A stretch of 64,000 nucleotides of DNA from Rubrivivax sp. (GTDB taxonomy: Bacteria > Pseudomonadota > Gammaproteobacteria > Burkholderiales > Burkholderiaceae_C). The number at the start of each line of letters is the position of its first letter. Within the stretch, counting starts at the first letter, position 1. The stretch is taken from NCBI GenBank assembly GCA_049274755.1, contig JBASTF010000206.1, positions 22,682-86,681 of the forward strand, read 5' to 3'. Shown here piece after piece: positions 23 to 12,163 of the stretch. Below the pieces are notes generated by a model. That model saw only the letters and a list, made by a program, of their open reading frames with translations. It had not been told where the DNA came from and searched no databases. Made by a program: the position numbers and the translations under genes.

Positions 23-913
23 CTACTGAAGGGCAGTCGGATGCTGGCCGCCGTCGTACAAATCAGGCAATCCGACGGACTGAAGCACCATCGCTTGCAA
101 CATGCCAACCCTGCGGGACAAGAAGTCGTCGATCTGCATCGCAATATCCTCCGGCACCGAAAGCGCAGCGTAGGGTACTCGGCTAACCGCGGAGGCCAAC
201 CTCGTACAAACCGCGATCAATGCCGGGCGAAGCCTCACGCGTTCTTGCGCAGGGTAGCTGGCAACGCGCGAGAGCAAGAAGTTCGCCGTGGCAGGTGTGA
301 CATCAGTTGAGAAGAAGCGCTGGCCGCCTCCGCCGAGTGACCTTCCGTGGTCGATCAGCCACAGGTCACGGCGAGGGCCGAGCAGGATGTTGCCTTCGGT
401 CCGGTCGTCGTTTGCGATCAGTTGGTCGAACACAGCAGCGGCGGGAAGGCTTCCCCACTTGTCGATCAGGGCCGTCGCGACGTCGGAGGAGACGTTACTC
501 AGCGAGAGGGCGTTTTCGACGGCCCTTGTGGCGAAGCAAGTCGCGTGCTGATCGGTGCCAAACGGCCATGCGCAGCCTCTCGGCATGCGGCTGGCAGGCA
601 TGTCCAGGAGCATGGGCTCGGGCACCGGTAGCTCGATCTCCCTTGCCAACCACGCACACACGGCTTCGATACTCCTGGCGTTGACCGGCAGAACCTTGAC
701 AAACACGGGCTCGAATGGGCCGGGCCACGACCGCCACGCGCGAAGAACGACGCGAGGCGTCTGCTTCACGACCTGGATTGGAGTGGCGACGCTGCCGGAA
801 GCGAACCCATGCATCCAAGCATTGTGCGCTGACAAGAACGCCACCCCCTGACCCCAGGGCTGTCTTGGAGCAAACTTCGGTGAGCGCCATGCTTCGCTGG
901 GCACATCACCCAA
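23..913 (-). CDS. HipA-like / PI3-4-kinase-fold kinase domain protein (296 aa)
   Basis: ORF 23..913(-). The C-terminal half has 'FDQLIANDDRTEGNILLG...LWLIDHGRSLGG', which fits the catalytic-loop D..N plus DxG pattern of HipA_C-type kinases. Nothing else was recognised. Confidence 0.55.
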   Translation of the reverse strand: MGDVPSEAWRSPKFAPRQPWGQGVAFLSAHNAWMHGFASGSVATPIQVVKQTPRVVLRAWRSWPGPFEPVFVKVLPVNARSIEAVCAWLAREIELPVPEPMLLDMPASRMPRGCAWPFGTDQHATCFATRAVENALSLSNVSSDVATALIDKWGSLPAAAVFDQLIANDDRTEGNILLGPRRDLWLIDHGRSLGGGGQRFFSTDVTPATANFLLSRVASYPAQERVRLRPALIAVCTRLASAVSRVPYAALSVPEDIAMQIDDFLSRRVGMLQAMVLQSVGLPDLYDGGQHPTALQ

Positions 914-1053
914 CGGTCATTTGGGTTCCCGTTCGCAAACCGCTGGGCACAGCCTGGGCACAAAGTGGGCACAGGATGGGCACAAAGCAAAAAGCCACCC
1001 GGCTGGGTGGCTTCCGCTTCGCAGCTAACTCGTTGATCTAGCTGCTGTTTTCT

Positions 1054-1115
1054 TGGTTGCGGGGGCAAGATTTGAACTTGCGACCTTTGGGTTATGAGCC
1101 CTAGTATCCCCCGCG
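1054..1115 (-). pseudogene. Truncated initiator tRNA-fMet (CAU) remnant lacking the D-arm; possible tRNA-derived att repeat
   Basis: The reverse complement reads CGCGGGG-GATACTA-GGGCTCATAACCC-AAAGGTC-GCAAGTTCAAATCTTGC-CCCCGCA-ACCA. It has the acceptor 5' and 3' strands with the C1/A72 mismatch, the three G:C pairs flanking a CUCAUAA anticodon loop, a T-arm and CCA. About 22 nt (the D-arm) is replaced by 7 nt. Confidence 0.6.
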
Positions 1116-1956
1116 GCCTGATACTGCGTTAAAGGTTATTAATCGGCTTCTTGCTGTGCCGACAAGCACTTAGCTCATCCAGCCCCTGATCCGACCAAAA
1201 CCAAACAGTACCGCTTGGCATCTAACCGGCCGGAAAGTCCAACCTGCACACTGCAGGCTCGCCCCGACCGTTGGGGTGCAGTGTAGCTGATGCCGGCGCG
1301 CCGGTCACCCGTTCTGGCGCGCTCAAGCCTCCCATGATGACCTCGGCCATGTCCCGGGGTCATGTCTCAAGCCGAATCGCCTATGCGCGGCAACGTTCAG
1401 AGAAAGGCCTGCAGGCGAGTTGTTGCGTCTGACGTCAGCAATCCAGACACCGGTTGCGGCGAAGCGCGTCTTCCAACGGGGGGAGTCGACTTGACTTGGC
1501 GCGCCTGAGGTTCGGTATTGGCCAGCTTCGGGACCTCAACTGGTGACGTTCAGAGGGGCTGCCGGCGAACGTGGTCCCGGCGATGCCTGCGCCGACGCTC
1601 ATCTTCCCGAAACCTAGGACATGGCCTGAGTCAGGGCACAGCCGGTGGGCCATACGCCGAGCGATGGATGAGGCCGGCCACACCCAGGTTCTGTTCAGGC
1701 AGAGCTTCAACCTGGGGAGCTTCGCTGAACCAGTGGGATCCTCGCCGCTCTCCATCGGTGAATTCGTTGTTATGGGAACGATTGGTGTTCATGTTTCGCT
1801 GCCTAGGCAACGAAGCCCGTCCGCGCATCGTGTCGAGCCGAACCGTGCGCCGAGGAGCGACTCCCACGCGCTTGATTTAGGGTGAATCAACGTCTTTCCA
1901 GTGCCCCACAGCCAGATTTCGTTTCTATAGCAACGAAAACACCTAGAATCGCCTCT

Positions 1957-2280
1957 ATGTCCGACACCTCTCCATCCTTGCGAAGCTCGAAAGTGCGCCC
2001 CGTTCCCGTCGTGGTGGGCGGCGCCCTGGAGCGCTTGGGCGTCCGGGTCACGCTGGCGAGGAAGCTGCGCGGCCTGACGCAGGAGGAACTCGGCCACCTG
2101 GCCGACGTTTCCACCTCGACCGTTCGATCTCTGGAAGCAGGTGCCGATGGCGTCGCACTGGGCAATCTTCTCAAGGTGCTTCAGGCGCTGGGCCTGCTTG
2201 CTCAGGTCGAGAAGCTGCTCGATCCACATGATGATCCAGAGACGGTCGCCTACGCAGAGCGTCATTTGAGGCCTCGATGA
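1957..2280 (+). CDS. hipB: XRE-family HTH antitoxin, HipB-like
   Basis: Frame of ORF 1882..2280. The HTH core is 'LARKLRGLTQEELGHLADVSTSTVRSLEAG'. The stop overlaps the hipA start (ATGA at 2277-2280). ATG 1957 was chosen; GTG 1882 is an alternative start. Confidence 0.7.
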   Translation: MSDTSPSLRSSKVRPVPVVVGGALERLGVRVTLARKLRGLTQEELGHLADVSTSTVRSLEAGADGVALGNLLKVLQALGLLAQVEKLLDPHDDPETVAYAERHLRPR

Positions 2281-3593
2281 CGGTCGTCACGCCCGTCTGG
2301 GTCTGGCTTCCTGGCCAGGACGAGCCCAAGAGGGCCGGCGAGATCGTGGCCGGGACAGGCTCTCGCTTCATCTATCGCCCGGAGTACTTGAAGACCGCTG
2401 GGGCTGTGGCGTTGGATCCGGTCGAACTGCGGCTCTCCCGTTCGTCCAGAGGCTCTGCGATCCTGGGCTCGGACGGTTTGCCCGGCGTCATTCGGGATGC
2501 CAAGCCCGCCGGATACGGCGAAGACCGCCTCAGGGCGATCCACGGGAGCAACCTCGACGCGCTGCAACTCCTGGAACTCGGCGTTCCCGACGGTGTCGGG
2601 GCCATCGAGGCTTGCCACGACATCGACAGAAAGCTGCGATGGCGGCCCAAAGGCCTCGGTGCTCTGCAGCAGCTCACCGAAGCGCTGGAACTGGAAGAGC
2701 CCTCAAGCCGCGCACTGCGCCGCCTGAACGACGACCTGGATACAAGCGCTGGGGGGGACCGCCCCAAGGCAACCCTGGTGGACGAGGGCCGGCTGTGGCT
2801 GGTGAAGATGCAAGCACGCGGCGACCGACAAGCCATGCCGGCGCGCGAGTTCGTGACGATGCGTCTGGCCGAGCAGGCTGGCTTGAACGTGGCGCCCGTC
2901 AAGCTGCACACCTTTGGCGTGCACCAAGTCTTGATGGTGTTGCGTTTCGATCGGGAGGGTGACCCGTACAAGCCGACGCGAAAGCTCTATGCCAGCGCAC
3001 ACACGGTCCTGCGACTGCGCCTGGATTCTGTCAGGGGTGATCCCGAGCGCTCCTATCTCGGCCTGGCAGACCGGCTGCGAATCTGGACCAACGACGGCGC
3101 CGACGATCACCGCGAGCGCCTGGCAGCACAGCTGGCCGAGCTTTGGAAACGAATGGCCTTCCACGCCTTGGTGGGCAACACCGATGACCATGCGCTGAAC
3201 ACCGGGTTGCTCTTCGATCGCGTGGGGGAGGACGCGGGACGCAGGGCCTGGGGGCTCTCTCCTGCCTTCGACATCACGCCCAACATGACAGGCCCGCCGC
3301 AAAGCATCGAGGAAGGCCCGCAACTGTCACTGGCGACCGGCACGGATGGACGCTCGGGCACGAGCGTCAAGCGGCTTGCCGAGGCAGCCGATCGGATGGG
3401 GCTGGACCGCGAGCACGCTATGAGCTGGCTGCAAGACACTGCCACGCAGGTTGCCCAGCAGTGGGAGCCCATGTTGCGAGCGGCAGCCCACCCGGTCATG
3501 CCTGACCCGGCGCGCATGGCGCGGCTCGTGGACGATGTCCGTCCGTCGTTTGCGTATTCGGAGTGGCTGGCGCAGGCACGGCCGGCAGGCTGA
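2277..3593 (+). CDS. hipA: Type II toxin HipA-family serine/threonine kinase (438 aa)
   Basis: 'RLWLVKMQARGD', 'FHALVGNTDDHALNTGLLF' (HipA catalytic loop) and 'LSPAFDITP'. It is coupled to the upstream HTH gene. Confidence 0.9.
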   Translation: MTVVTPVWVWLPGQDEPKRAGEIVAGTGSRFIYRPEYLKTAGAVALDPVELRLSRSSRGSAILGSDGLPGVIRDAKPAGYGEDRLRAIHGSNLDALQLLELGVPDGVGAIEACHDIDRKLRWRPKGLGALQQLTEALELEEPSSRALRRLNDDLDTSAGGDRPKATLVDEGRLWLVKMQARGDRQAMPAREFVTMRLAEQAGLNVAPVKLHTFGVHQVLMVLRFDREGDPYKPTRKLYASAHTVLRLRLDSVRGDPERSYLGLADRLRIWTNDGADDHRERLAAQLAELWKRMAFHALVGNTDDHALNTGLLFDRVGEDAGRRAWGLSPAFDITPNMTGPPQSIEEGPQLSLATGTDGRSGTSVKRLAEAADRMGLDREHAMSWLQDTATQVAQQWEPMLRAAAHPVMPDPARMARLVDDVRPSFAYSEWLAQARPAG

Positions 3594-3908
3594 TCGATCG
3601 TCGGATGGCGTAGGCGACGTGCGTTGCGGAACCGACGCACCGCGAGCGGTCGTGCATCGACCCCTTGGACGTGACAGGAGCTTGACCAACCTTGCGCTGC
3701 GGCGGAGCCAGCTTCGGCTGCGCGCGAAGTGCGGTGCTCAGCAGATGCCCGAATTCGCCAACTCCCCCCCTCATTCAAGGGGGTCAGCTCGACTTTTCAT
3801 GTCTTATTGACTGGCGCATGGAAATTACGCCGATTGCCCAAAATAATATTCAAAGATAACTGCCTCGAAATTACAACAAAACCAGAGATCGAATTAAATT
3901 AACTTGCC

Positions 3909-3926
3909 TTAGTGCACGCGCACTAA
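3909..3926. promoter_or_regulatory. Inverted repeat TTAGTGC-N4-GCACTAA in an AT-rich upstream region (candidate operator)
   Basis: Perfect 7-bp arms read directly from the sequence. It lies about 70 nt upstream of ATG 3997, inside the only markedly AT-rich stretch (about 3780-3996) of the first 11 kb. Confidence 0.3.
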
Positions 3927-3996
3927 ATATGCTGAGTCAAGCCTGCACGAGTTACTTCTCGGCACGACTGGACAACCTACAACTGCGCGTAAAGGC

Positions 3997-4575
3997 ATGA
4001 CGAGAAAGAAGCACTTCACTCAGCTCATTGAGTTTCAGCTCACAGAGCTGACGACGATCCGGTACGTGGATCCGGATGTTCAGCACCTGCGAAATCAGGC
4101 GGATCTAGCGGGCGATCATTTGATCGACAGCACCTGCTGGACAGGCGACGGCCTGCTCGCGGTTGCAACCTGCTACCCGGTCATCTTGCGGCGCAGCACG
4201 ACCTCCCAAGGCATGTACGAGGTGATTGCCAATGGCGCACTGCTACCCGCCTTGCGCCTGAAGCATCCCGAGATTTCGGCGGTCCCGGCGCTCGTTTGTT
4301 CCCATGTCAGCAGCCACGACAAGCGCCTGCTGGCCGGAAGCGAAATGCTGGGCCTGTCGGCACTGTTCAGACACCGGGAGCGACAGGTGGAGGCCATGGC
4401 TGCCATGTGGATGGCCATGCGGGCCGCCGGCGTCAACGCGCTGTCCGGCGAATTGCAGACCACGCTGGAAAAGGCCTGCCGGGTGAACTCGCGAACGGCG
4501 GCTGCGGCCCTCAGCAGTGTCCCCCGCCAGCCGCGGTTGACCGTCATGGGTGCGTCCGCAGCGGGGCAAGCATGA
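3997..4575 (+). CDS. Hypothetical protein (192 aa), translationally coupled to the giant recombinase-domain gene
   Basis: ORF 3997..4575(+) follows the AT-rich region. Its stop overlaps the next start (ATGA 4572-4575). The only family hint is a weak ParB/Srx-like pattern ('YEVIANGALLPALRL'), so no family is assigned. Confidence 0.6.
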   Translation: MTRKKHFTQLIEFQLTELTTIRYVDPDVQHLRNQADLAGDHLIDSTCWTGDGLLAVATCYPVILRRSTTSQGMYEVIANGALLPALRLKHPEISAVPALVCSHVSSHDKRLLAGSEMLGLSALFRHRERQVEAMAAMWMAMRAAGVNALSGELQTTLEKACRVNSRTAAAALSSVPRQPRLTVMGASAAGQA

Positions 4576-7500
4576 AGCTTAACGCGCTGCCGGCATTGGC
4601 AGACAGCCTCGTGTACCAGGCCCTCGTCCACGACGTCAGGGACCACGACCTGGACACCGAAGCGCTGGACACGCTGCTGTGGCTGCTTGGCGCCCACCCG
4701 CAGTTGGTCGCCCATGCCCGTGTGTTCGAGAACCTGCGCACCCTGCTCTCTTTGCCGATGCTTGCGGACATGCATTTGTCGTGGGCGAGCAACTGGACGG
4801 CTTCGCTGCCGGCGATCCGCGAACTCCTGGTCTGGTTCTCTGCAGAGAAGAGCCGGCTCGCCGAGATCCAGCCGCTGGCTCCTCTGTTCGCTGCACCGAC
4901 CAACAAGGCGGAGCACCCGCTTGTGGGCCAACACGTCGACCGTCACCCTGTCGCGGCTGCGCTCTGGAGCCGAGCGGCCCAGGAGTTCGCGGCCGAGTAC
5001 CTGGAGTTGCAAGGCCATGTGCTGGTGATCTACGCCGAGGCGCGTAGGCGTGCAGCAGCGCAGCGGGCCGACTTCTTCACTTACGCCGGTGCCCGGGAGT
5101 TTGCGCCCTCGCCCATGAATGGCGGCCCGCTCGGCCGTGCAGTCCGCGAGCTGGCTAAGCCGGAACTGGCGCCAGCCTTGATTCAGCTTCCACGCGCGCA
5201 TTCGACGCGCCAGTTCGCGAACCTGCTGAAAACCTTCACGGCGGACTTCAGGGAAGTGGACTCCACCAGCAAGTCCAGGATGGATGACGCTCTGGCATCG
5301 ATCAAGGCCCACTTCGCCAACCTGGAGAACATGCTGAAGCGCGAAGGACTGCATGCACGGACGCGGAAGGCCGGTCAGCGCAGCGGATCCACCGGGCGGC
5401 AGGGATATGCCCCATACGCCTCTGGCTCACCCATCCTGCTGATGAATCCAGGCTCCACAAACGAGGCAGGCGGGCTCATCACTGTGGCCACAGTGCTGGA
5501 CCCTTCGCCAGAAGACGATGATCAGGTCCTCGAGGCATCGGGACTGTGCCCGCTGGAAGTGATCGAGCCGCTGCTGCACCTCTATGAGTACGAAGAGCTC
5601 GCAGCCAAGACAAGCAGCCTGAACCTCCAGCAGGCCACCATGGAGTCGCATGCCCAGGCGATGCGCTACTCAACAGACCATGCCAGTGCGGCGGACGTCA
5701 AGGCGCTTTGCCTCCTGGCCAATGGAGCCGAGCAGACTGCCCGGCATGCTGCACGTGGTGAGCGCGCCAGTGCCCAGCAGGTCTGGAAGGGCGGGCTTCT
5801 CGCCATGCAGATGTTGACTCTGGGGTGGGAGCTCGAGCGGGCCCGCGCGCTGATCGTCGAATACATCGACGACCTCACAGCTGACGCCATCGACCGCTTG
5901 CTCAGCAGGCCGATCGACCGACCACGCCTGCTGGCGCACCATGCGTCTGACGCAGAGACGCCACGGGTGGTCGGCTATCTCATTCCAGGTCTGGCGCCCA
6001 CCTACAAGACCGACCTCACACCTGCCACCGCCGCCATCGGACGGCTTCGGCACGAGGCGCTGCTACTGCCTGACGCCACGGGCGTCGGGCAACGCGCGCT
6101 GGCTCTGGCGCTGGCCGAGGGCAGGGCCAGCAAGACTGGCGACAGCTTGTTCGGCATGGAGCCCAAGACCGCCAAGGCAGCTGTCAGCCTCTTCATGGAC
6201 CAGGTTCAAAGGCAGCTGCAGCCCCCAGACTCGATGGCAAAGCGCAGCGTCCTGACGCTGGGCAAGATCGCGGGGGCCATTCCTGCTGCGATCCTCTCGA
6301 AGTGTGGCGACCAGGTGCCGGCCTGGATCATCTGCTGGCAGACCACGAAGGCCAACGAGGCGAGGCTCTTCTACTCACAGTTTTCTGTCGGCCAGCTGCA
6401 GCAGCTTTACCTCAGCGCGCTGCGGCGGCTGATGCCTCCTGGCCAAGTCTCTTCCGTAGTCGCAACGCCATTGGGACGGAGCGAGAGCCCATTGGACGCC
6501 AGCTCGGCGACCCGTGTATTGGGAGCTCGGTTCGTTGCCCGACACGACGCCGTCTTGTCGCTGGTCGAGCGTCTTCAGGCCGCGGTGAGTACTGGGCCAG
6601 ACCTCCAGAAGATCAGTGAGATCACGCGGTACCACAACAACTACGTTCTCTATACGTGGCTGCTGCAAACGATGCGCACGTCTCTGCGTGCGATCACATC
6701 GCCTACCGCGCTGCTGCACGCCGTCGAGCGCATGGCACTGGCCACAGGTCCGTTCGACCGCCCGCAGGTGGTCTACACCGCCATCAGCGACAAATCGGGC
6801 GGCCTCGAGGACCGCGCCCGCCTGGTCGCGCTGCAGGGCGATTTGCTCGACCAGCTCGATCACTTCCGTGCGCACACCGCGGTGGTCCTGGGCAGGTTGG
6901 AGATCGCAGCGGATTGGGGCAACAGCAGCGCGGAGTGCCAGCGACTGTTCTGGCTGGACAGCAACATCAGGCCAAAGCCAGTGACACCGGCGTGGCTGGA
7001 GGACTCACTGGCAGCGCTGGGCTTTCCCGCACCGGCAAACTTCAGCCGCGGCTACCTCCGAACGGAGCTGCTGCAGTCAGGCTGCCCGCCGCAGGCGATT
7101 GACGCACTGCTGGGCCATCACAGCTTCGGTGAGAACCCGAGCGCGCGTTACTCGAGCCTGGACTGGCCTCTGCAGATGAGAGTCGTCAGCACCCATCTCG
7201 ACAAGGTGCTGGGCGACCTGGGTCTTCGAGCGTTACGCAGTCACTTGCTGCCGGCTGCCGTCGACCCCGTCAGCGCGCCGTGGCGGCTACCGCCGGCCGA
7301 CCTGAAGGCACTGCCGTTGCCTCCAACGCGTATCACCCGAAAGCTGCCGGAAAGTACCCAGGACTTCGACACGGCTGCGGCACACGAACTCTGGACAGCG
7401 GTCAGCCAACAGAGTACCGAGCAAACCCGGCGGCAGGCACCCGCTCTGCTGGCCTTCCTGCGCGATGCCGACAACCCAGGCGCCAAAGCCCTGCTCTGTT

Positions 7501-10500
7501 GCGATGGGCGCCATGTGGCCGACGCCGCAAGAACGGAAAGCGCCCGCCAGCTTGAGGCATTGGTCCTGGAGCAGTACGCCAAGCGACGCGTGACTCGGCT
7601 CAATGTCATGCACTGGCTGCGGATGCTGCACAGCGCCGAGCGGCGGATGCGCGCAGCGGGACATTTGATGGTGCTGACCCGCCTCGCCTACGTCCGGGCA
7701 GAGACGCCCAGCGTCTTCGGCTCGCAGAACACCTGGACACTGCCTGCATTCCACGCCTGGCGCGCGGCGCTCGAGCGCTGGGTGCGAGAGCTGCCTTCGC
7801 GGCGAGCCGCAAGACAACAGCATCCGCTGACCTGGTGCGCGGCAGTGGTTCTTTCCGCCATCACGGGCGCCATGATGCTGGACCGGACACTCCTGCGGCA
7901 CTGGCTGCTGACGCTTTCCGGCGAAGGTGACCGGGCCTTGGCAACGGCAAATGGACACGGATGTCTGCACGTCAACCTGCCGTCGACGTTACCCGGCGGC
8001 ACTCAGTCCCGTGCGTGTTTCCTGGACCCGCTCACAGAGCTGCTGGTGTTGCGTTTGCCGTCACTGCCCCACGCCATCGGGCTGAGCGAGCTTCGGCAAC
8101 CTATGCGCGATCTGCTGTTGGGGGAAGGCGTTCCCCAGGCCTGGATTCCGCGATCCTGGAGTCCGGTGCTGCGGGCGGCCAGAACCTACTGGTCAACGCA
8201 GGCACCGCAGTTCGTCGTGCAGGCCGCAAACCGGGGTTTCGCAACCGACGCGCTGCGAATGGACTGCTGGTCGCGGTTGTTCCAGCATGAACTGCTGCTG
8301 CTACCGCTGCCAGGTCGGCTGGCAGCGGAAGAGCCATCTGACGATGGGGTAGGTGCCGCTGGCGATCTGGAAGGTACAGCCGTGGCAGGCAGCCTGGAGG
8401 AAGGTGACCATGAGACGGATCCGTTGCCGGAGGATGCGATTGCGGCTCATCCTTGGCTCGCGGATTTGAGCCATGCCCTCGACACGGACGATCTGCCTTC
8501 CGCCATGGCCAAGCTTTCGCAGGAACTCACGAAGTTCGAAGGGCACCCCACGGCCCAGCGGTATGCCACCTGGTTGATCGACAACCTAACGCAAACCCCC
8601 GGCACGGAAGACAGTCGCACGCCGCGAGGGGTCAGCCGCAACTTGCTTCGACTTGTTCCCCGCCTGTTGATCGAGTTCGGTGACACGTGGCCGGGTGACC
8701 TCCTGGCTGACGAGCGTGACCGACGTATGCAACTACTCCTTGATGCGGAATCGGCGCTTGATGGGCGGCGGGAAATGAGCGCCATGCTCGCCACTTTGCT
8801 GCCCGGCAATGATGCGCATCGCGCAGGTGGGCCGAACTGGTTTGACGATCTGGACCTTGATGGAGAGGACGGACCCCGCGTCGATGCCCGCATCGTCAGC
8901 ATCGACGCATTGGTCCGGGCACTTGCGCTTGCTCGGTCAGGGATAGAGCCGTTCATCGCCCCAGACGAGCGCGAGATCGTTGAGGTGGCCATGATGCTGG
9001 CAGGACGAACCGGTACTCGCCCTACGGAGTGGCTCGGGCTGCGACTGGTGGACGTCTCCGACCAGAAGGGTCTCGAACTGCTCATTCGCCCACACCCAGA
9101 GCGACCTCTCAAGTCAGCCAACGCTGAGAGGCGAGTGCCGGTTTCAGCGCTGCTTGGCGCAGGGGAACGGCGTCAGTTACGGGCGTGGATGGCGCGCCGT
9201 CGCGATGAGGTCGCGCATCTCCCGTTGGACCAGCAGCAACGCGCGCCGCTGTTTCACCTTGACAAGTGGCAAACCACCGCCGTCCGTGTTCAACGCTTGA
9301 CCACGCTGATCACTCGCCTGCTGCGGCAGGCCAGCGGCGACCCGCTGGTGCGCGTCTACAGCTTACGCCACTCGTTCTGCACCTGGACCTGCCTGGCCCT
9401 CACCGCCCCGGAAAGCCAACCGCTGCTGCACTTCCTGCGGGACCTTCCACTGACCCGCGCCTGGATAGGACGTGGCCTCGTGCTTCGCAGGCAGTTGCTG
9501 CCAGGGAAGATCGGCCCGGAAAGAAGATGTCTCCACGCACTCAGCCGGCTGATGGGCCATATGTCGCCAGCGGTGACACTGGCGCATTACACACATCTCG
9601 TGGACCTCCTGCAATTCGACGCAGTCAGCCGAACGTCGGCGAAGGTAGAAGCAGCCGTTCTGGTCGCAGCGTCATGCCTGCCAGCCTCAACGGCCTATGA
9701 GCGCATCGCGCGTTCAGTCCAATCCCTCGTTAAGGCTACACGGGCCTATGTCGGTGCGGCACCTGCGGCCACTCAGCCCGCCGTCCGTGTGCACGACCCC
9801 CTCGGGATGGGCTCGCCCCACTGGTCTGCGGACAAGGTCCGATCCGTTTTGAACGCATGGCTCACGAGCGCACAACCTCCCTCGCGCATCGCTACGCACT
9901 TTGGGGTCACAGAGGCCGACGTGTGCAGGATGGCAGACGCGGCGGCAGAGCTTGGGCTGCTGCTCGGGGAACCGTTGAGGTCGTCAGTTTTGGATAGCGT
10001 TCGAGCGACGTGTTGTCCGCCGATTGGGCGGTTGAACGATGCGCAGCGCAGGACGAGAGACGATCTCTTCGACCGCGCCATCCGCGTCTGGCGGGCCAAC
10101 CCGGCACTAGCAGATCAGGGGGTGCGGCTACATCTGCAGAACATAGATCAGGGCATGAACGACGTTGTGTTTACCGACGCGACCTCGCTGAAGACCTACC
10201 TGTCCTTCCTGGACGCCTGCTCGGTGGCGCCACGCGCCGTGAAGATCTGTCTGCGCCGAACCGCCGATACCGACGTGGAACTGCCCGAATGGGCGAAGGG
10301 TTACCTAGGGCCGTACAGTGAATGTGCCGTCCACGTGATCCGGCCTCGGTCACTCGACTCGGTCGAAGGTTACTTCAGGTGGATAGGCCTGAAGATCTTT
10401 GACGAAGAGGGGCGAGGATCCGGGGTTTGGTTGTCGAGGGCGTGGTTCTATTCCGCAGTTGTTGGAAGGAACTTCCTCACCGGGCGCGGCACACCCCACT

Positions 10501-10574
10501 CTCCAACGCCGGCCGGCGGGTGTGATCTCGCCGCCCGTCCGAGCGGAGTCCCAATCCCGTCGTCAATACCGTGA
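4572..10574 (+). CDS. Giant (2000 aa) protein with a C-proximal tyrosine-recombinase catalytic domain and an upstream degenerate integrase-like segment
   Basis: ORF frame 4296..10574, trimmed to ATG 4572, which overlaps the upstream stop. Nt ~9010-9600 encode 'GTRPTEWLGLRLVDV' (Arg I), 'LKSANAERRVPV' (Lys), 'VYSLRHSFCTW' (HxxR) and 'LMGHMSPAVTLAHYTHL' (His + Tyr nucleophile). Nt ~7050-7160 encode 'FSRGYLRTELLQSGCPPQAIDALLGHHSFGENPSARYSS', an integrase-C-end-like segment. The rest was not recognised. Confidence 0.8.
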   Translation: MKLNALPALADSLVYQALVHDVRDHDLDTEALDTLLWLLGAHPQLVAHARVFENLRTLLSLPMLADMHLSWASNWTASLPAIRELLVWFSAEKSRLAEIQPLAPLFAAPTNKAEHPLVGQHVDRHPVAAALWSRAAQEFAAEYLELQGHVLVIYAEARRRAAAQRADFFTYAGAREFAPSPMNGGPLGRAVRELAKPELAPALIQLPRAHSTRQFANLLKTFTADFREVDSTSKSRMDDALASIKAHFANLENMLKREGLHARTRKAGQRSGSTGRQGYAPYASGSPILLMNPGSTNEAGGLITVATVLDPSPEDDDQVLEASGLCPLEVIEPLLHLYEYEELAAKTSSLNLQQATMESHAQAMRYSTDHASAADVKALCLLANGAEQTARHAARGERASAQQVWKGGLLAMQMLTLGWELERARALIVEYIDDLTADAIDRLLSRPIDRPRLLAHHASDAETPRVVGYLIPGLAPTYKTDLTPATAAIGRLRHEALLLPDATGVGQRALALALAEGRASKTGDSLFGMEPKTAKAAVSLFMDQVQRQLQPPDSMAKRSVLTLGKIAGAIPAAILSKCGDQVPAWIICWQTTKANEARLFYSQFSVGQLQQLYLSALRRLMPPGQVSSVVATPLGRSESPLDASSATRVLGARFVARHDAVLSLVERLQAAVSTGPDLQKISEITRYHNNYVLYTWLLQTMRTSLRAITSPTALLHAVERMALATGPFDRPQVVYTAISDKSGGLEDRARLVALQGDLLDQLDHFRAHTAVVLGRLEIAADWGNSSAECQRLFWLDSNIRPKPVTPAWLEDSLAALGFPAPANFSRGYLRTELLQSGCPPQAIDALLGHHSFGENPSARYSSLDWPLQMRVVSTHLDKVLGDLGLRALRSHLLPAAVDPVSAPWRLPPADLKALPLPPTRITRKLPESTQDFDTAAAHELWTAVSQQSTEQTRRQAPALLAFLRDADNPGAKALLCCDGRHVADAARTESARQLEALVLEQYAKRRVTRLNVMHWLRMLHSAERRMRAAGHLMVLTRLAYVRAETPSVFGSQNTWTLPAFHAWRAALERWVRELPSRRAARQQHPLTWCAAVVLSAITGAMMLDRTLLRHWLLTLSGEGDRALATANGHGCLHVNLPSTLPGGTQSRACFLDPLTELLVLRLPSLPHAIGLSELRQPMRDLLLGEGVPQAWIPRSWSPVLRAARTYWSTQAPQFVVQAANRGFATDALRMDCWSRLFQHELLLLPLPGRLAAEEPSDDGVGAAGDLEGTAVAGSLEEGDHETDPLPEDAIAAHPWLADLSHALDTDDLPSAMAKLSQELTKFEGHPTAQRYATWLIDNLTQTPGTEDSRTPRGVSRNLLRLVPRLLIEFGDTWPGDLLADERDRRMQLLLDAESALDGRREMSAMLATLLPGNDAHRAGGPNWFDDLDLDGEDGPRVDARIVSIDALVRALALARSGIEPFIAPDEREIVEVAMMLAGRTGTRPTEWLGLRLVDVSDQKGLELLIRPHPERPLKSANAERRVPVSALLGAGERRQLRAWMARRRDEVAHLPLDQQQRAPLFHLDKWQTTAVRVQRLTTLITRLLRQASGDPLVRVYSLRHSFCTWTCLALTAPESQPLLHFLRDLPLTRAWIGRGLVLRRQLLPGKIGPERRCLHALSRLMGHMSPAVTLAHYTHLVDLLQFDAVSRTSAKVEAAVLVAASCLPASTAYERIARSVQSLVKATRAYVGAAPAATQPAVRVHDPLGMGSPHWSADKVRSVLNAWLTSAQPPSRIATHFGVTEADVCRMADAAAELGLLLGEPLRSSVLDSVRATCCPPIGRLNDAQRRTRDDLFDRAIRVWRANPALADQGVRLHLQNIDQGMNDVVFTDATSLKTYLSFLDACSVAPRAVKICLRRTADTDVELPEWAKGYLGPYSECAVHVIRPRSLDSVEGYFRWIGLKIFDEEGRGSGVWLSRAWFYSAVVGRNFLTGRGTPHSPTPAGGCDLAARPSGVPIPSSIP

Positions 10575-10701
10575 CAGCCTAGCCAGACCGCCGGAATTGC
10601 GTTCACAACTGAGTTGCAAACGGCCGTCCGTGATCACGCGATGACGCGATGCTGCGAAGCAGCAGGGGTTGGGCAGCCGATTGCAGTTCGTTGATGAACG
10701 A

Positions 10702-11322
10702 TTACCTCGGAAGGTCCCGTAGCGACCAAAGATTGGCGCATCGAACCCTATTCCGATCGAACAGGTCCAGGACATGGGTCTCGACGATGCCTGCCAAGGC
10801 AGCTTCCGCCAGGTTGCTTCGGACGACGTAACCAGAAATGCTGGCCAACAAGTCACTTCTGTTCGCGTTCCAGACCTTTTTCATGCAGCACGACGTGTCC
10901 ATTTCGCAGCCCAGGCCGCTGGTCAGATCGCATACATCCAGCGCACCAAGCTCTCTGAAGAGACCGTAGAAGAAAGTCAGAACTGACATCTGAAGCTCTG
11001 CCGCTCTTTCGTACATGGCCTCGATCTCTTGTGTGCCAATCTCGAGGAGAACTGAGTTCGGACCGACACGATTCAGAGCGACATCCTCAAGATCCACGAA
11101 CACAACGCCCGCGTACTTCAACGCGGGAAGGGCTTCATCCGGTAGCCTTTCGATCTGCCGCAGCACTTCAGCATCAAGGCTCGGCTTTCTGCGCAGCACC
11201 CAGCGGTCAATGTCGTCGGCAGGCGGGTTGTTCATGTTCCAGAAGCTCCTCACGGCTTGTGCTACAGACGCCTGCTTTGTCTCCTGGCGTCCACCCTCCC
11301 AATCTAAGCCCTCTTTGTCCAT
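10702..11322 (-). CDS. Hypothetical protein (206 aa)
   Basis: ORF 10702..11322(-). Codon usage is less GC3-biased than in the neighbouring genes. No motif was recognised. Confidence 0.5.
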   Translation of the reverse strand: MDKEGLDWEGGRQETKQASVAQAVRSFWNMNNPPADDIDRWVLRRKPSLDAEVLRQIERLPDEALPALKYAGVVFVDLEDVALNRVGPNSVLLEIGTQEIEAMYERAAELQMSVLTFFYGLFRELGALDVCDLTSGLGCEMDTSCCMKKVWNANRSDLLASISGYVVRSNLAEAALAGIVETHVLDLFDRNRVRCANLWSLRDLPR

Positions 11323-11839
11323 AACAGGTCAGTAGGTTGGTGGTCGAAGTTTCTCGTCGGCACCCGACCCGGAAAGATCGATCTTCACGCGGGCGTTCGC
11401 TCCCACGCTCGAACGGGTGCGCATCAGTTCCATAGCTTTCACCGCTGGAACCCGAACCTTCACCAGTCACTGTTGAACTGAGTTCAGGCCGGGCTGGACG
11501 CAACCGTCGACGCGTACGGCGCACCGCCCGAGTTGCTGATTTCGCCGTCAATTGGGGCCGTGCAGCTCGCTCGACGCGATGCCGGCAACCTGAACCACGC
11601 CGAGTCGCGGGCAACTCGCCGACGGTGGCGGTTGCTTGCCGCCTGCCCGCGAACTCACGCTCACCAGCATCAAGCTGTCGTTCAAGGCTGAATTCTGCTT
11701 TCTGCTTCGACGATTACCGGTCGTCGCAGACAACCCAATCACGAAAGCCCTTCTTCAAGGTTGGTGCGATCAGCAGCGGATGTCGAAACGGATGTCATCA
11801 GCCTGCAGCGAGCCCAGGCCCTTCCGGGCTCAAGACTCC

Positions 11840-12163
11840 TTACCGCTTCAACTGATCAAGCTTGCGTTCGATCTTGCTCCAGGCCTCGGCATCGGGCAGT
11901 GCGAGCTTCGTCTTTGTGATGGGCTGCCATTCGCGCGCCAGCTCGGCATTCAACGGCGTGAAGTGCTGCTGGCTGGCCGGGACATCTTCATCGGCGTAGA
12001 TGGCGTTCACCGGGCACTCGGGCACGCAGACTGCGCAGTCGATGCAGTCGTCTGGGTCGATGACGAGAAAATTCGGGCCTTCACGGAACGCGTCGACTGG
12101 GCACACGTCCACGCATTCCGTGTACTTGCAGCGGATGCATGCCTCGGTGACGACGAAGGTCAT
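11840..12163 (-). CDS. fdxA: 7Fe ferredoxin (ferredoxin I type)
   Basis: '[55 protein letters not shown]' shows the classic [3Fe-4S][4Fe-4S] cysteine pattern. Confidence 0.95.

Follow-up and report, generated by a model that had tools for sequence, protein, structure and literature searches.

The window analysed here, a 64,000-nucleotide stretch of contig JBASTF010000206.1 from Rubrivivax sp., carries on its forward strand a giant gene with a tyrosine-recombinase domain, preceded by a small partner gene in the same operon. The open reading frame (ORF) of the giant gene, counted from the ATG at 4572, runs to 10574 and encodes 2000 amino acids. The upstream ORF (3997–4575) encodes 192 amino acids, and its TGA stop codon overlaps the ATG of the giant gene as ATGA within the coupling sequence CAAGCATGAAGC. 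Comparison with relatives divides the giant protein into an N-terminal half, A, and a C-terminal half, B. The features of the operon are as follows.

3997–4575, plus strand: small partner gene (192 amino acids), first of the operon, in ATGA overlap with the giant gene.
4572–10574, plus strand: giant ORF (2000 amino acids), an A–B fusion with full-length conservation and with both split and fused homologues.
4572–7250, plus strand: A-half, residues 1–893, matching separate proteins of 800–870 amino acids encoded directly upstream of B genes.
6639–7166, plus strand: recombinase-like segment of the A-half, marked by invariant residues and by weak XerA and Pfam matches.
7251–7361, plus strand: Pro-rich linker, residues 894–930, at the A/B junction, where separate A proteins end and separate B proteins begin.
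7362–8306, plus strand: N-terminal domain of B, residues 931–1245, confidently modelled as helices and a three-stranded sheet.
8313–8414, plus strand: acidic, disordered linker, residues 1248–1281, with a predicted local distance difference test (pLDDT) score below 50 at B residues 318–351.
8421–9761, plus strand: core-binding and catalytic domains, residues 1284–1730, supported by PF00589, conservation, the model (pLDDT 85) and Foldseek.
9819–10481, plus strand: C-terminal α/β domain of B, residues 1750–1970 (B residues 820–1040), based on the model and on conservation.

The Pfam profile PF00589 (Phage_integrase) matched residues 1472–1605 of the giant protein with 33.7 bits, above the curated gathering cut-off of 27.1 bits, and integrase families of PHROG matched residues 1467–1697. 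The rest of the protein gave no further Pfam match, also when it was tiled in pieces of 300 residues, and NCBIfam and PDB sequence searches added nothing useful. An initial annotation, made from the sequence alone, had described a single 2000-residue polypeptide with a recombinase domain far from its N-terminus, coupled through ATGA to a 192-residue ORF and with about 1400 residues unrecognised. Each part of that description holds: the protein is conserved over its full length at 53% identity and matches PF00589, the ATG/TGA overlap is read in the sequence, the small partner is conserved, and the 300-residue tiles revealed the integrase domain only. The same annotation had allowed that the catalytic residues might fail to fit integrase profiles; PF00589 was matched above its cut-off.

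A word-based search over 5.8 billion proteins retrieved eight relatives of the 2000-residue protein. Six of these were 87–92% identical and came from JGI, ENA, Logan and NCBI assemblies; the other two were a full-length protein of 1995 residues at 53% identity and one contig-truncated copy. The 53%-identity form is encoded by an Ideonella metagenome-assembled genome (MAG; locus L007), and the giant ORF is 53% identical to both P0007 and L007 along its entire length. Because conservation covers its whole length, the giant ORF represents a real polypeptide under selection. The initial annotation had pointed out that a frameshift or assembly error joining two genes would undo its interpretation, and A and B are indeed two genes in most relatives. 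The probability of such an artefact is nevertheless negligible, since the same fused ORF occurs in independent JGI, ENA, Logan and NCBI assemblies (P0001–P0007) and in the Ideonella MAG, the Pro-rich linker is conserved at the A/B junction, and about ten further 50%-identity clusters are also fused.

A search with the C-terminal part of the protein identified two distant relatives of about 1000 residues, P0010 and P0011, whose loci contain a gene for a protein of 800–851 residues and a small gene upstream, with overlapping stop and start codons. The 851-residue A protein of locus L009 aligned to window residues 27–217 and 460–893 (blastp, 7e-30), and the 1079-residue B protein aligned to residues 1437–1709 (3e-29) and also to residues 1092–1236 of the Ideonella form. 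As the split homologues align in this manner, the giant protein consists of A (residues 1 to about 893), a Pro-rich linker and B (about 931–2000). A and B are separate genes in L008, L009, L013, L014, L015 and L016, encoding about 800–870 and 1000–1100 amino acids, respectively, with the small gene first. Furthermore, when seven loci (L008, L009 and L012–L016) were scanned with hidden Markov models (HMMs) of the two halves, each had either an A gene immediately before B, with overlapping stop and start codons, or a fused A–B ORF. The 2000-residue protein is a natural fusion of two proteins that are mostly encoded by neighbouring genes in relatives.

The catalytic residues of B are R1483 (nucleotide 9018), K1514 (9111), R1599 (9366), H1663 (9558) and Y1673 (9588), and all five are invariant in 98 of 98 aligned, diverse B sequences. 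The position of the first catalytic histidine is occupied by a tyrosine in the window protein (Y1596, nucleotide 9357), which thus holds five of the six residues of the R-K-H-R-H-Y set. Among the 98 sequences this position is His in 91, Tyr in five (the window clade included) and Gln in two. The complete catalytic set of the initial annotation therefore stands for R, K, R, H and Y and falls short at the first His. Its 'HxxR' motif was misread: the sequence is VYSLRH (Y-S-L-R-H), and the histidine that was counted is the non-catalytic one after the arginine.

An AlphaFold2 model of the B-half, built from the 98-sequence alignment, reached a pLDDT of 85.1 and a predicted template modelling score of 0.74. 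Foldseek comparison of this model with the PDB returned IntI (2a3v), XerH (5jjv), XerA (5hxy), lambda Int, XerD and Cre as the top matches, with alignments of 350–440 columns on targets of 270–350 residues, covering both the core-binding and the catalytic domain. Similarly, comparison with BFVD returned integrases only, and every Foldseek match with E < 0.1 was a recombinase. Judged by its predicted fold and its catalytic residues, B is a true tyrosine recombinase.

The N-terminal domain of B contains the nearly invariant residues W1149, D1152 and R1235, and the C-terminal domain contains an invariant W1907 and a conserved CCPP motif. The acidic linker differs in length between the window clade and the clade of the 53%-identity form, here called the Ideonella clade. 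Beyond recombinases, the PDB and BFVD searches gave no high-probability match, in output that does not record which residues were aligned; because neither library lists a high-probability match other than to a recombinase, the N- and C-terminal domains are without a detected structural neighbour. In hhalign comparisons, neither of these two domains showed significant similarity to the other or to A. Nor did hhalign, with no E-value below 0.03, support a third, degenerate catalytic-like unit in B residues 1090–1240 or paralogy between A and B domains.

The A-half contains the blocks T-S-L-R706, S-D-K741-x8-R750-L-V and N823-F-S-R826-G-Y-L-R-T-E-L-L, followed by L-G-H849 and then Y860, in an order colinear with the recombinase catalytic domain. 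The residues concerned are encoded at nucleotides 6687 (R706), 6792 (K741), 6819 (R750), 7038 (N823), 7047 (R826), 7116 (H849) and 7149 (Y860), and the second motif, N823-F-S-R826 ... G848-H849 ... Y860, spans nucleotides 7038–7151. R706, K741, R750, R826 and H849 do not vary among 15 diverse A sequences, 14 of which also have N823. At position 860, eight sequences have His, four have Tyr, and Leu, Phe and Asn occur once each; the 15 sequences show no other conserved tyrosine close to it. On this pattern of conservation, A keeps the pocket-like Arg-Lys-Arg-His residues without a conserved tyrosine nucleophile.

A profile of 14 A sequences gave four matches among 177,635 PDB sequences, one of them XerA (4a8e; E = 0.2), aligned on box II. 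A match of the A profile to ubiquitin was dismissed as a spurious short motif with per-domain E-values of 56–110. Against Pfam, the 14 A members gave four weak matches in all, two of which were to recombinase families (PF16795 at 0.032 and PF00589 at 0.11), and the A-half of the window itself gave none. A second recombinase-like domain in A is probable rather than established. The initial annotation had placed a degenerate domain here, and its motif is located as described, with R, K, R and H colinear and invariant, whereas the homology is marginal.

An exhaustive HMMER search with the B-half profile over 1.84 billion cluster representatives (50%-identity clusters) yielded 3159 matches at E ≤ 1e-3, 2332 at 1e-10 and 885 at 1e-30. 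The best 150 matches were nearly all full-length proteins of 1000–1100 residues, and about ten of these 150 were fused forms of roughly 1750–2150 residues. When 36 family members were scanned, 30 also matched PF00589. Members are mostly singletons on short metagenomic contigs, named, if at all, only 'integrase' or 'hypothetical protein'. The initial annotation had left room for the homologues to be a well-described family; they form a large family of which no description was found in the literature and profile libraries searched. By these profile matches, B defines a large unnamed family that is neither rare nor unique. The system has gone without a name because the part that any profile recognises comprises only about 130 residues of a single protein. 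A tblastn search found no B-type protein in 72,556 plasmids or 50,697 phage records, which rules out plasmid or cultured-phage carriage in those records, and IMG/VR contains only two contigs with the module of small gene, A and B.

The 192-residue partner is 59% identical to the 194-residue partner in the Ideonella locus L007, and the small proteins of the window, L007, L012, L015 and L016 are mutually homologous. In every locus whose contig extends far enough, the small gene precedes A. The 192-residue partner has no match in Pfam, NCBIfam, PADLOC, PHROG or the PDB. A ParB/Srx-like N-terminal domain, an impression gained from 'YEVIANGALLPALRL', received no PDB or Pfam support and was rejected.

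Three further features lie between the left end of the window and the operon.

3760–3996, plus strand: upstream control region, with a hairpin (CCCCCCT...GGGGGT), a sigma-70-like site and an inverted repeat.
1882–3593, plus strand: hipB–hipA pair (Pfam HTH_3 and HipA_C), cargo between the left end and the operon.
1057–1115, minus strand: tRNA-fMet-like remnant with the D-arm deleted (Rfam tRNA model, 29.9 bits; cut-off 29).

In the AT-richer region at 3790–3990, a promoter scan placed one sigma-70-like site at 3819–3847, and an inverted repeat, TTAGTGC-ACGC-GCACTAA, lies at 3909–3926. The AT-rich, palindrome-bearing and promoter-like region of the initial annotation is thereby recovered, as are its tRNA-fMet remnant, by the Rfam model, and its hipBA pair, by Pfam. 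Blocks of the control region are kept between the window clade and the Ideonella clade despite different upstream genes.

The tRNA-fMet-like remnant (59 nucleotides) has its acceptor stem, CAT anticodon arm and T-arm intact, and is not called as a tRNA by ARAGORN at 1057–1115. A hairpin and T-run follow it on its own strand (at about 990–1016). The remnant is nearly invariant in the window, L004, L005, L006 and L007, a conservation that spans two clades with proteins only 53–59% identical. About 250 nucleotides of conserved non-coding DNA adjoin it, to about 1310, and the region is 75% identical to that of L007. The remnant could be the relic of an att site or a functional RNA. Beyond its terminator, four exact GGGCACA repeats with 11-bp spacing occupy 945–984, and a further copy lies at 899–905; the whole 64 kb holds only 13 copies of this heptamer. 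Similar phased repeats occur in L005, and degenerate ones in L006, and the window and L005 diverge immediately to the left (at about 897). The GGGCACA repeats look like protein-binding iterons.

The cargo between the left end and the operon consists of hipB (1882–2280) and hipA (2277–3593). In the same place, the Ideonella clade has a different hipBA (30% identical and on the opposite strand) and an AbiE-like pair. At 1431–1629 on the minus strand, the window contains a hipA pseudogene fragment that resembles the C-terminus of the Ideonella-clade hipA (42–45% over 31 and 40 amino acids). Because this Ideonella-type fragment remains, the comparison suggests that the cargo region was replaced by a different hipBA. 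A 296-residue ORF at 23–913 on the minus strand has a HipA_2-like kinase domain (Pfam E = 1.6e-07); whether gene or remnant, it would bring the number of HipA-type kinases within 4 kb to three.

L007 (5387–16036), L001 (1–10533) and L006 (5362 to its end) have a 10.6-kb block in common, at 87–91% nucleotide identity and with differing flanks. In L007 the block begins with the tRNA-like remnant, followed by hipA and hipB (minus strand), a 187-residue gene, a 247-residue AbiEii-like gene, the 194-residue partner gene and the giant gene, and its right border lies 48 bp past the stop codon of the giant gene. A palindrome is found at this border, GGGCAGCTGCCC in L007 (16018–16029) and GGGCGACCGCCC in L001 (10515–10526), the two differing by one compensatory pair change; it may form the stem of a terminator or serve as a core site for a recombinase. 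The window and Ideonella clades have in common the left end, which comprises the tRNA-like remnant and about 250 nucleotides, as well as the promoter, the small gene and the giant gene, while the middle cargo is different. Conserved ends with exchangeable cargo are the usual anatomy of a mobile element.

The favoured interpretation, with a probability of roughly 0.55, is that the small protein, A and B constitute the site-specific recombination module of this small island, and that the window carries a fused version of it. From the conserved ends, the variable cargo and the block border, the module probably moves the island of about 10 kb in which it sits. The recombinase of an unusual integrative element, as put forward in the initial annotation, is thus the best-supported reading of the locus.

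The proposed system has three components, namely a small accessory protein, A and B, of which A and B here share one chain of 2000 residues. B would be the catalytic subunit, with core-binding and catalytic domains flanked by two family-specific domains. A would be a very divergent recombinase-derived subunit that binds DNA and forms a complex with B but does not itself cut. On the model of the Xer and Cre tetramers, a dimer of the fusion protein would contain all four recombinase-like units that a synaptic tetramer needs, two of them able to cleave. Such a half-cleaving tetramer would favour the exchange of one strand pair, as has been proposed for the SE elements compared below. The module would integrate and excise the island, which begins with the tRNA-fMet-like remnant, takes in the toxin-antitoxin cargo and ends with the giant gene.

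Several observations weigh against this interpretation, and the first concern the borders. In loci anchored by NnrS, chromosomal synteny with relatives stops at about 11628–11860, just past a ferredoxin gene, and the whole region therefore lies in variable DNA, which favours a mobile block; the synteny break in the window is, however, about 1 kb past the giant gene and not 48 bp. No att sites, terminal repeats or empty site were found at the block ends or in the NnrS-anchored loci. Direct or inverted repeats common to the block ends were absent from the window, and L007 had one 10-mer match, no more than expected by chance. Attempts to locate an empty site gave none: an exact query with the ferredoxin of the window returned nothing, a 27-mer across the tRNA-like junction was unmatched in metagenome_contigs, and the NnrS-anchored loci contained no intact tRNA-fMet. 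Furthermore, the window, L004 and L005 have the same right flank, so that the window clade shows no sign of recent movement. In the interval of about 1 kb that separates the giant gene from the start of synteny with L021 at about 11628 (about 10620–11630), a 206-residue ORF on the minus strand (10702–11322) has no family match, and L004 has three small ORFs there.

Other difficulties concern the two halves of the protein. Because the first catalytic His is a Tyr in the window clade, the activity of B might be altered. Comparison of A with the B catalytic domain by hhalign and hmmsearch was not significant, and the recombinase-like nature of A is marginal and statistically insecure. The initial annotation had proposed structure prediction as a test for two folds of the core-binding/catalytic type; the fold was confirmed in the B-half (pLDDT 85.1), whereas the AlphaFold model of the A-half, from a four-sequence alignment, was unusable (pLDDT 32.7).

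The same interpretation is also opposed by what adjoins the module in relatives. Loci L008 and L016 carry an ordinary integrase 1–1.5 kb downstream of B; that of L008, from Lysobacter, is of P4 type and 1.3 kb away, and that of L016 has a tRNA-Arg beside it. In L015 (an IMG/VR contig; 675–4490), P2-like tail genes, T (tape measure), gpU and gpD, directly precede the small gene, A and B. In phage P2, the position after the tail genes at which the L015 module sits is that of ogr, attP and int. Because integrases or P2-like tail genes adjoin it in these loci, the module could be cargo of other elements.

On this alternative, the main rival but somewhat doubtful, the module would be an accessory recombinase of various islands and prophages that resolves or inverts DNA, or that serves defence or exclusion against incoming mobile DNA. 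The neighbours of the module, which are of toxin-antitoxin or defence-like type, lend it support. An AbiEii-like 247-residue gene with a 187-residue partner lies upstream in L007 (7789–9083), and an AbiEi/DUF6088 gene lies upstream in L016 (1774–2376); given these AbiE genes and the two hipBA lineages of the window and L007, toxin-antitoxin cargo recurs beside the module. Further neighbours are HigB, an AAA_21 ATPase, a PLD nuclease and an SLFN-like helicase. A known anti-phage defence system was nevertheless rejected, since neither the window proteins nor the split homologues and partners matched PADLOC-DB 2.0, and no invertible segment or inverted-repeat pair was found. Conserved ends, variable cargo and a sharp border 48 bp past the gene fit the own recombinase of an element, and tandem accretion of islands at one site would also bring foreign integrases close by.

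A decaying or domesticated window copy that no longer recombines DNA is unlikely. The change of the first catalytic His to Tyr in the window clade, the shared chromosomal place of the window, L004 and L005, and the local decay evident in the hipA pseudogene fragment at 1431–1629 all agree with such a fate. The 6-kb ORF is, however, intact in at least eight sequences from different samples, its conservation at 53% over the whole length points to purifying selection, all remaining catalytic residues are intact, and a Tyr or Gln at the first His position occurs in seven of 98 family members.

The module that is favoured here as the recombination machinery of the island has its nearest counterparts among multi-component tyrosine-recombinase elements. 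In SE and GInt elements, catalytic recombinases act together with a small protein and a recombinase-fold protein that is not catalytic (PMC10214605, PMC5385486). The core of an SE is intA-tfp-intB-srap, and SEs have been reported only from Gammaproteobacteria (PMC10214605); SE Tfp and GInt GinC are recombinase-fold proteins without the full catalytic set (PMC10214605, PMC5385486). As in the system proposed here, the SE module lies at one end of a small, non-conjugative integrative element and has several recombinase-type components: a large catalytic recombinase, a large recombinase-fold protein without the catalytic tyrosine and a small auxiliary protein, whose genes are translationally coupled. 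In contrast, an SE comprises four genes, of which two encode catalytic recombinases (545 and 671 residues in pAQU1) and one encodes Tfp (614 residues), whereas the present operon comprises only the small gene, A and B, or the small gene and a fused A–B, without a recombinase of ordinary size. Its single catalytic protein has about 1050 residues and its non-nucleophile protein about 850, the small gene comes first and fusion is possible. SEs are further marked by imperfect terminal inverted repeats of 13–19 bp and by strand-biased attL × attR products; no terminal repeats were found between the block ends here. The HMMs of A, B and the small partner scored no more than 2.3 bits against the four pAQU1 SE proteins, and blastp gave nothing below E = 0.7; SE membership was ruled out by this direct comparison.

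GInt elements (ginABCD; PMC5385486) likewise place an operon for recombinase-like proteins and a small protein on the margin of an island whose cargo varies, occur in Beta- and Gammaproteobacteria, and include an incomplete recombinase, GinC. They differ in having three recombinase-like genes of ordinary to moderate size together with ginD (a small helix-loop-helix protein), at the 5′ end and transcribed inward, whereas transcription in the present system runs toward the border, and its products are two much larger proteins or a single fused one. GInt was compared by description only, and on that basis membership was rejected from the gene number, sizes and order.

Tn554 (tnpA, tnpB and tnpC) resembles the present system in that two unequal recombinase-type proteins and a small protein are all needed for site-specific transposition. 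Its proteins, of 361, 630 and 125 residues, are much smaller, both of its recombinases have the catalytic motif, its hosts are Firmicutes and its gene order differs. RIT elements have three catalytic recombinases of ordinary size, and BIM elements a recombinase with an SMC-like protein (PMC3414803). Membership in Tn554, RIT or, by description, BIM was rejected, as only one protein here has a conserved nucleophile and both have 800–1100 residues.

XerH, XerA, IntI and XerD are the best structural matches to the core-binding and catalytic domains of B, and XerC and XerD form the classical heteromeric pair, of whose partners only one cleaves at any time. Xer- and IntI-type proteins have 270–350 residues and no extra domains, whereas B is extended by about 315 N-terminal and about 250 C-terminal residues and has about 35 more inserted between its second Arg and second His. 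Going by its genes, the system is set apart from the known multi-component elements by its composition, with one catalytic protein in place of two, its size, its gene order and its fused variant.

A more far-reaching interpretation is tentative. In it, the small protein, A and B would represent an unnamed class of integrative element, or of recombination machinery borne by elements, that depends on an obligate heteromer of one catalytic and one nucleophile-less subunit, the two being fused into one chain in some cases. Such a heteromer would therefore cut one strand pair and follow a strand-biased, copy-out-like route, and the B-specific domains would give new target or partner recognition. 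Part of the same tentative interpretation is that the small–A–B system is widespread in environmental bacteria.

Multi-component tyrosine-recombinase elements such as SE, GInt, Tn554 and RIT are few and poorly understood, and they matter because resistance and virulence genes move with them without conjugation genes. The present locus points to a further, much larger-bodied system, represented by hundreds of diverged clusters. The natural single-chain fusion provides a simple test of cooperation between catalytic and non-catalytic recombinase subunits, and from the fused form it could be learned whether half-active tetramers account for strand bias in recombination. Recombinases with new DNA-recognition domains would also be of interest as tools for genome engineering.

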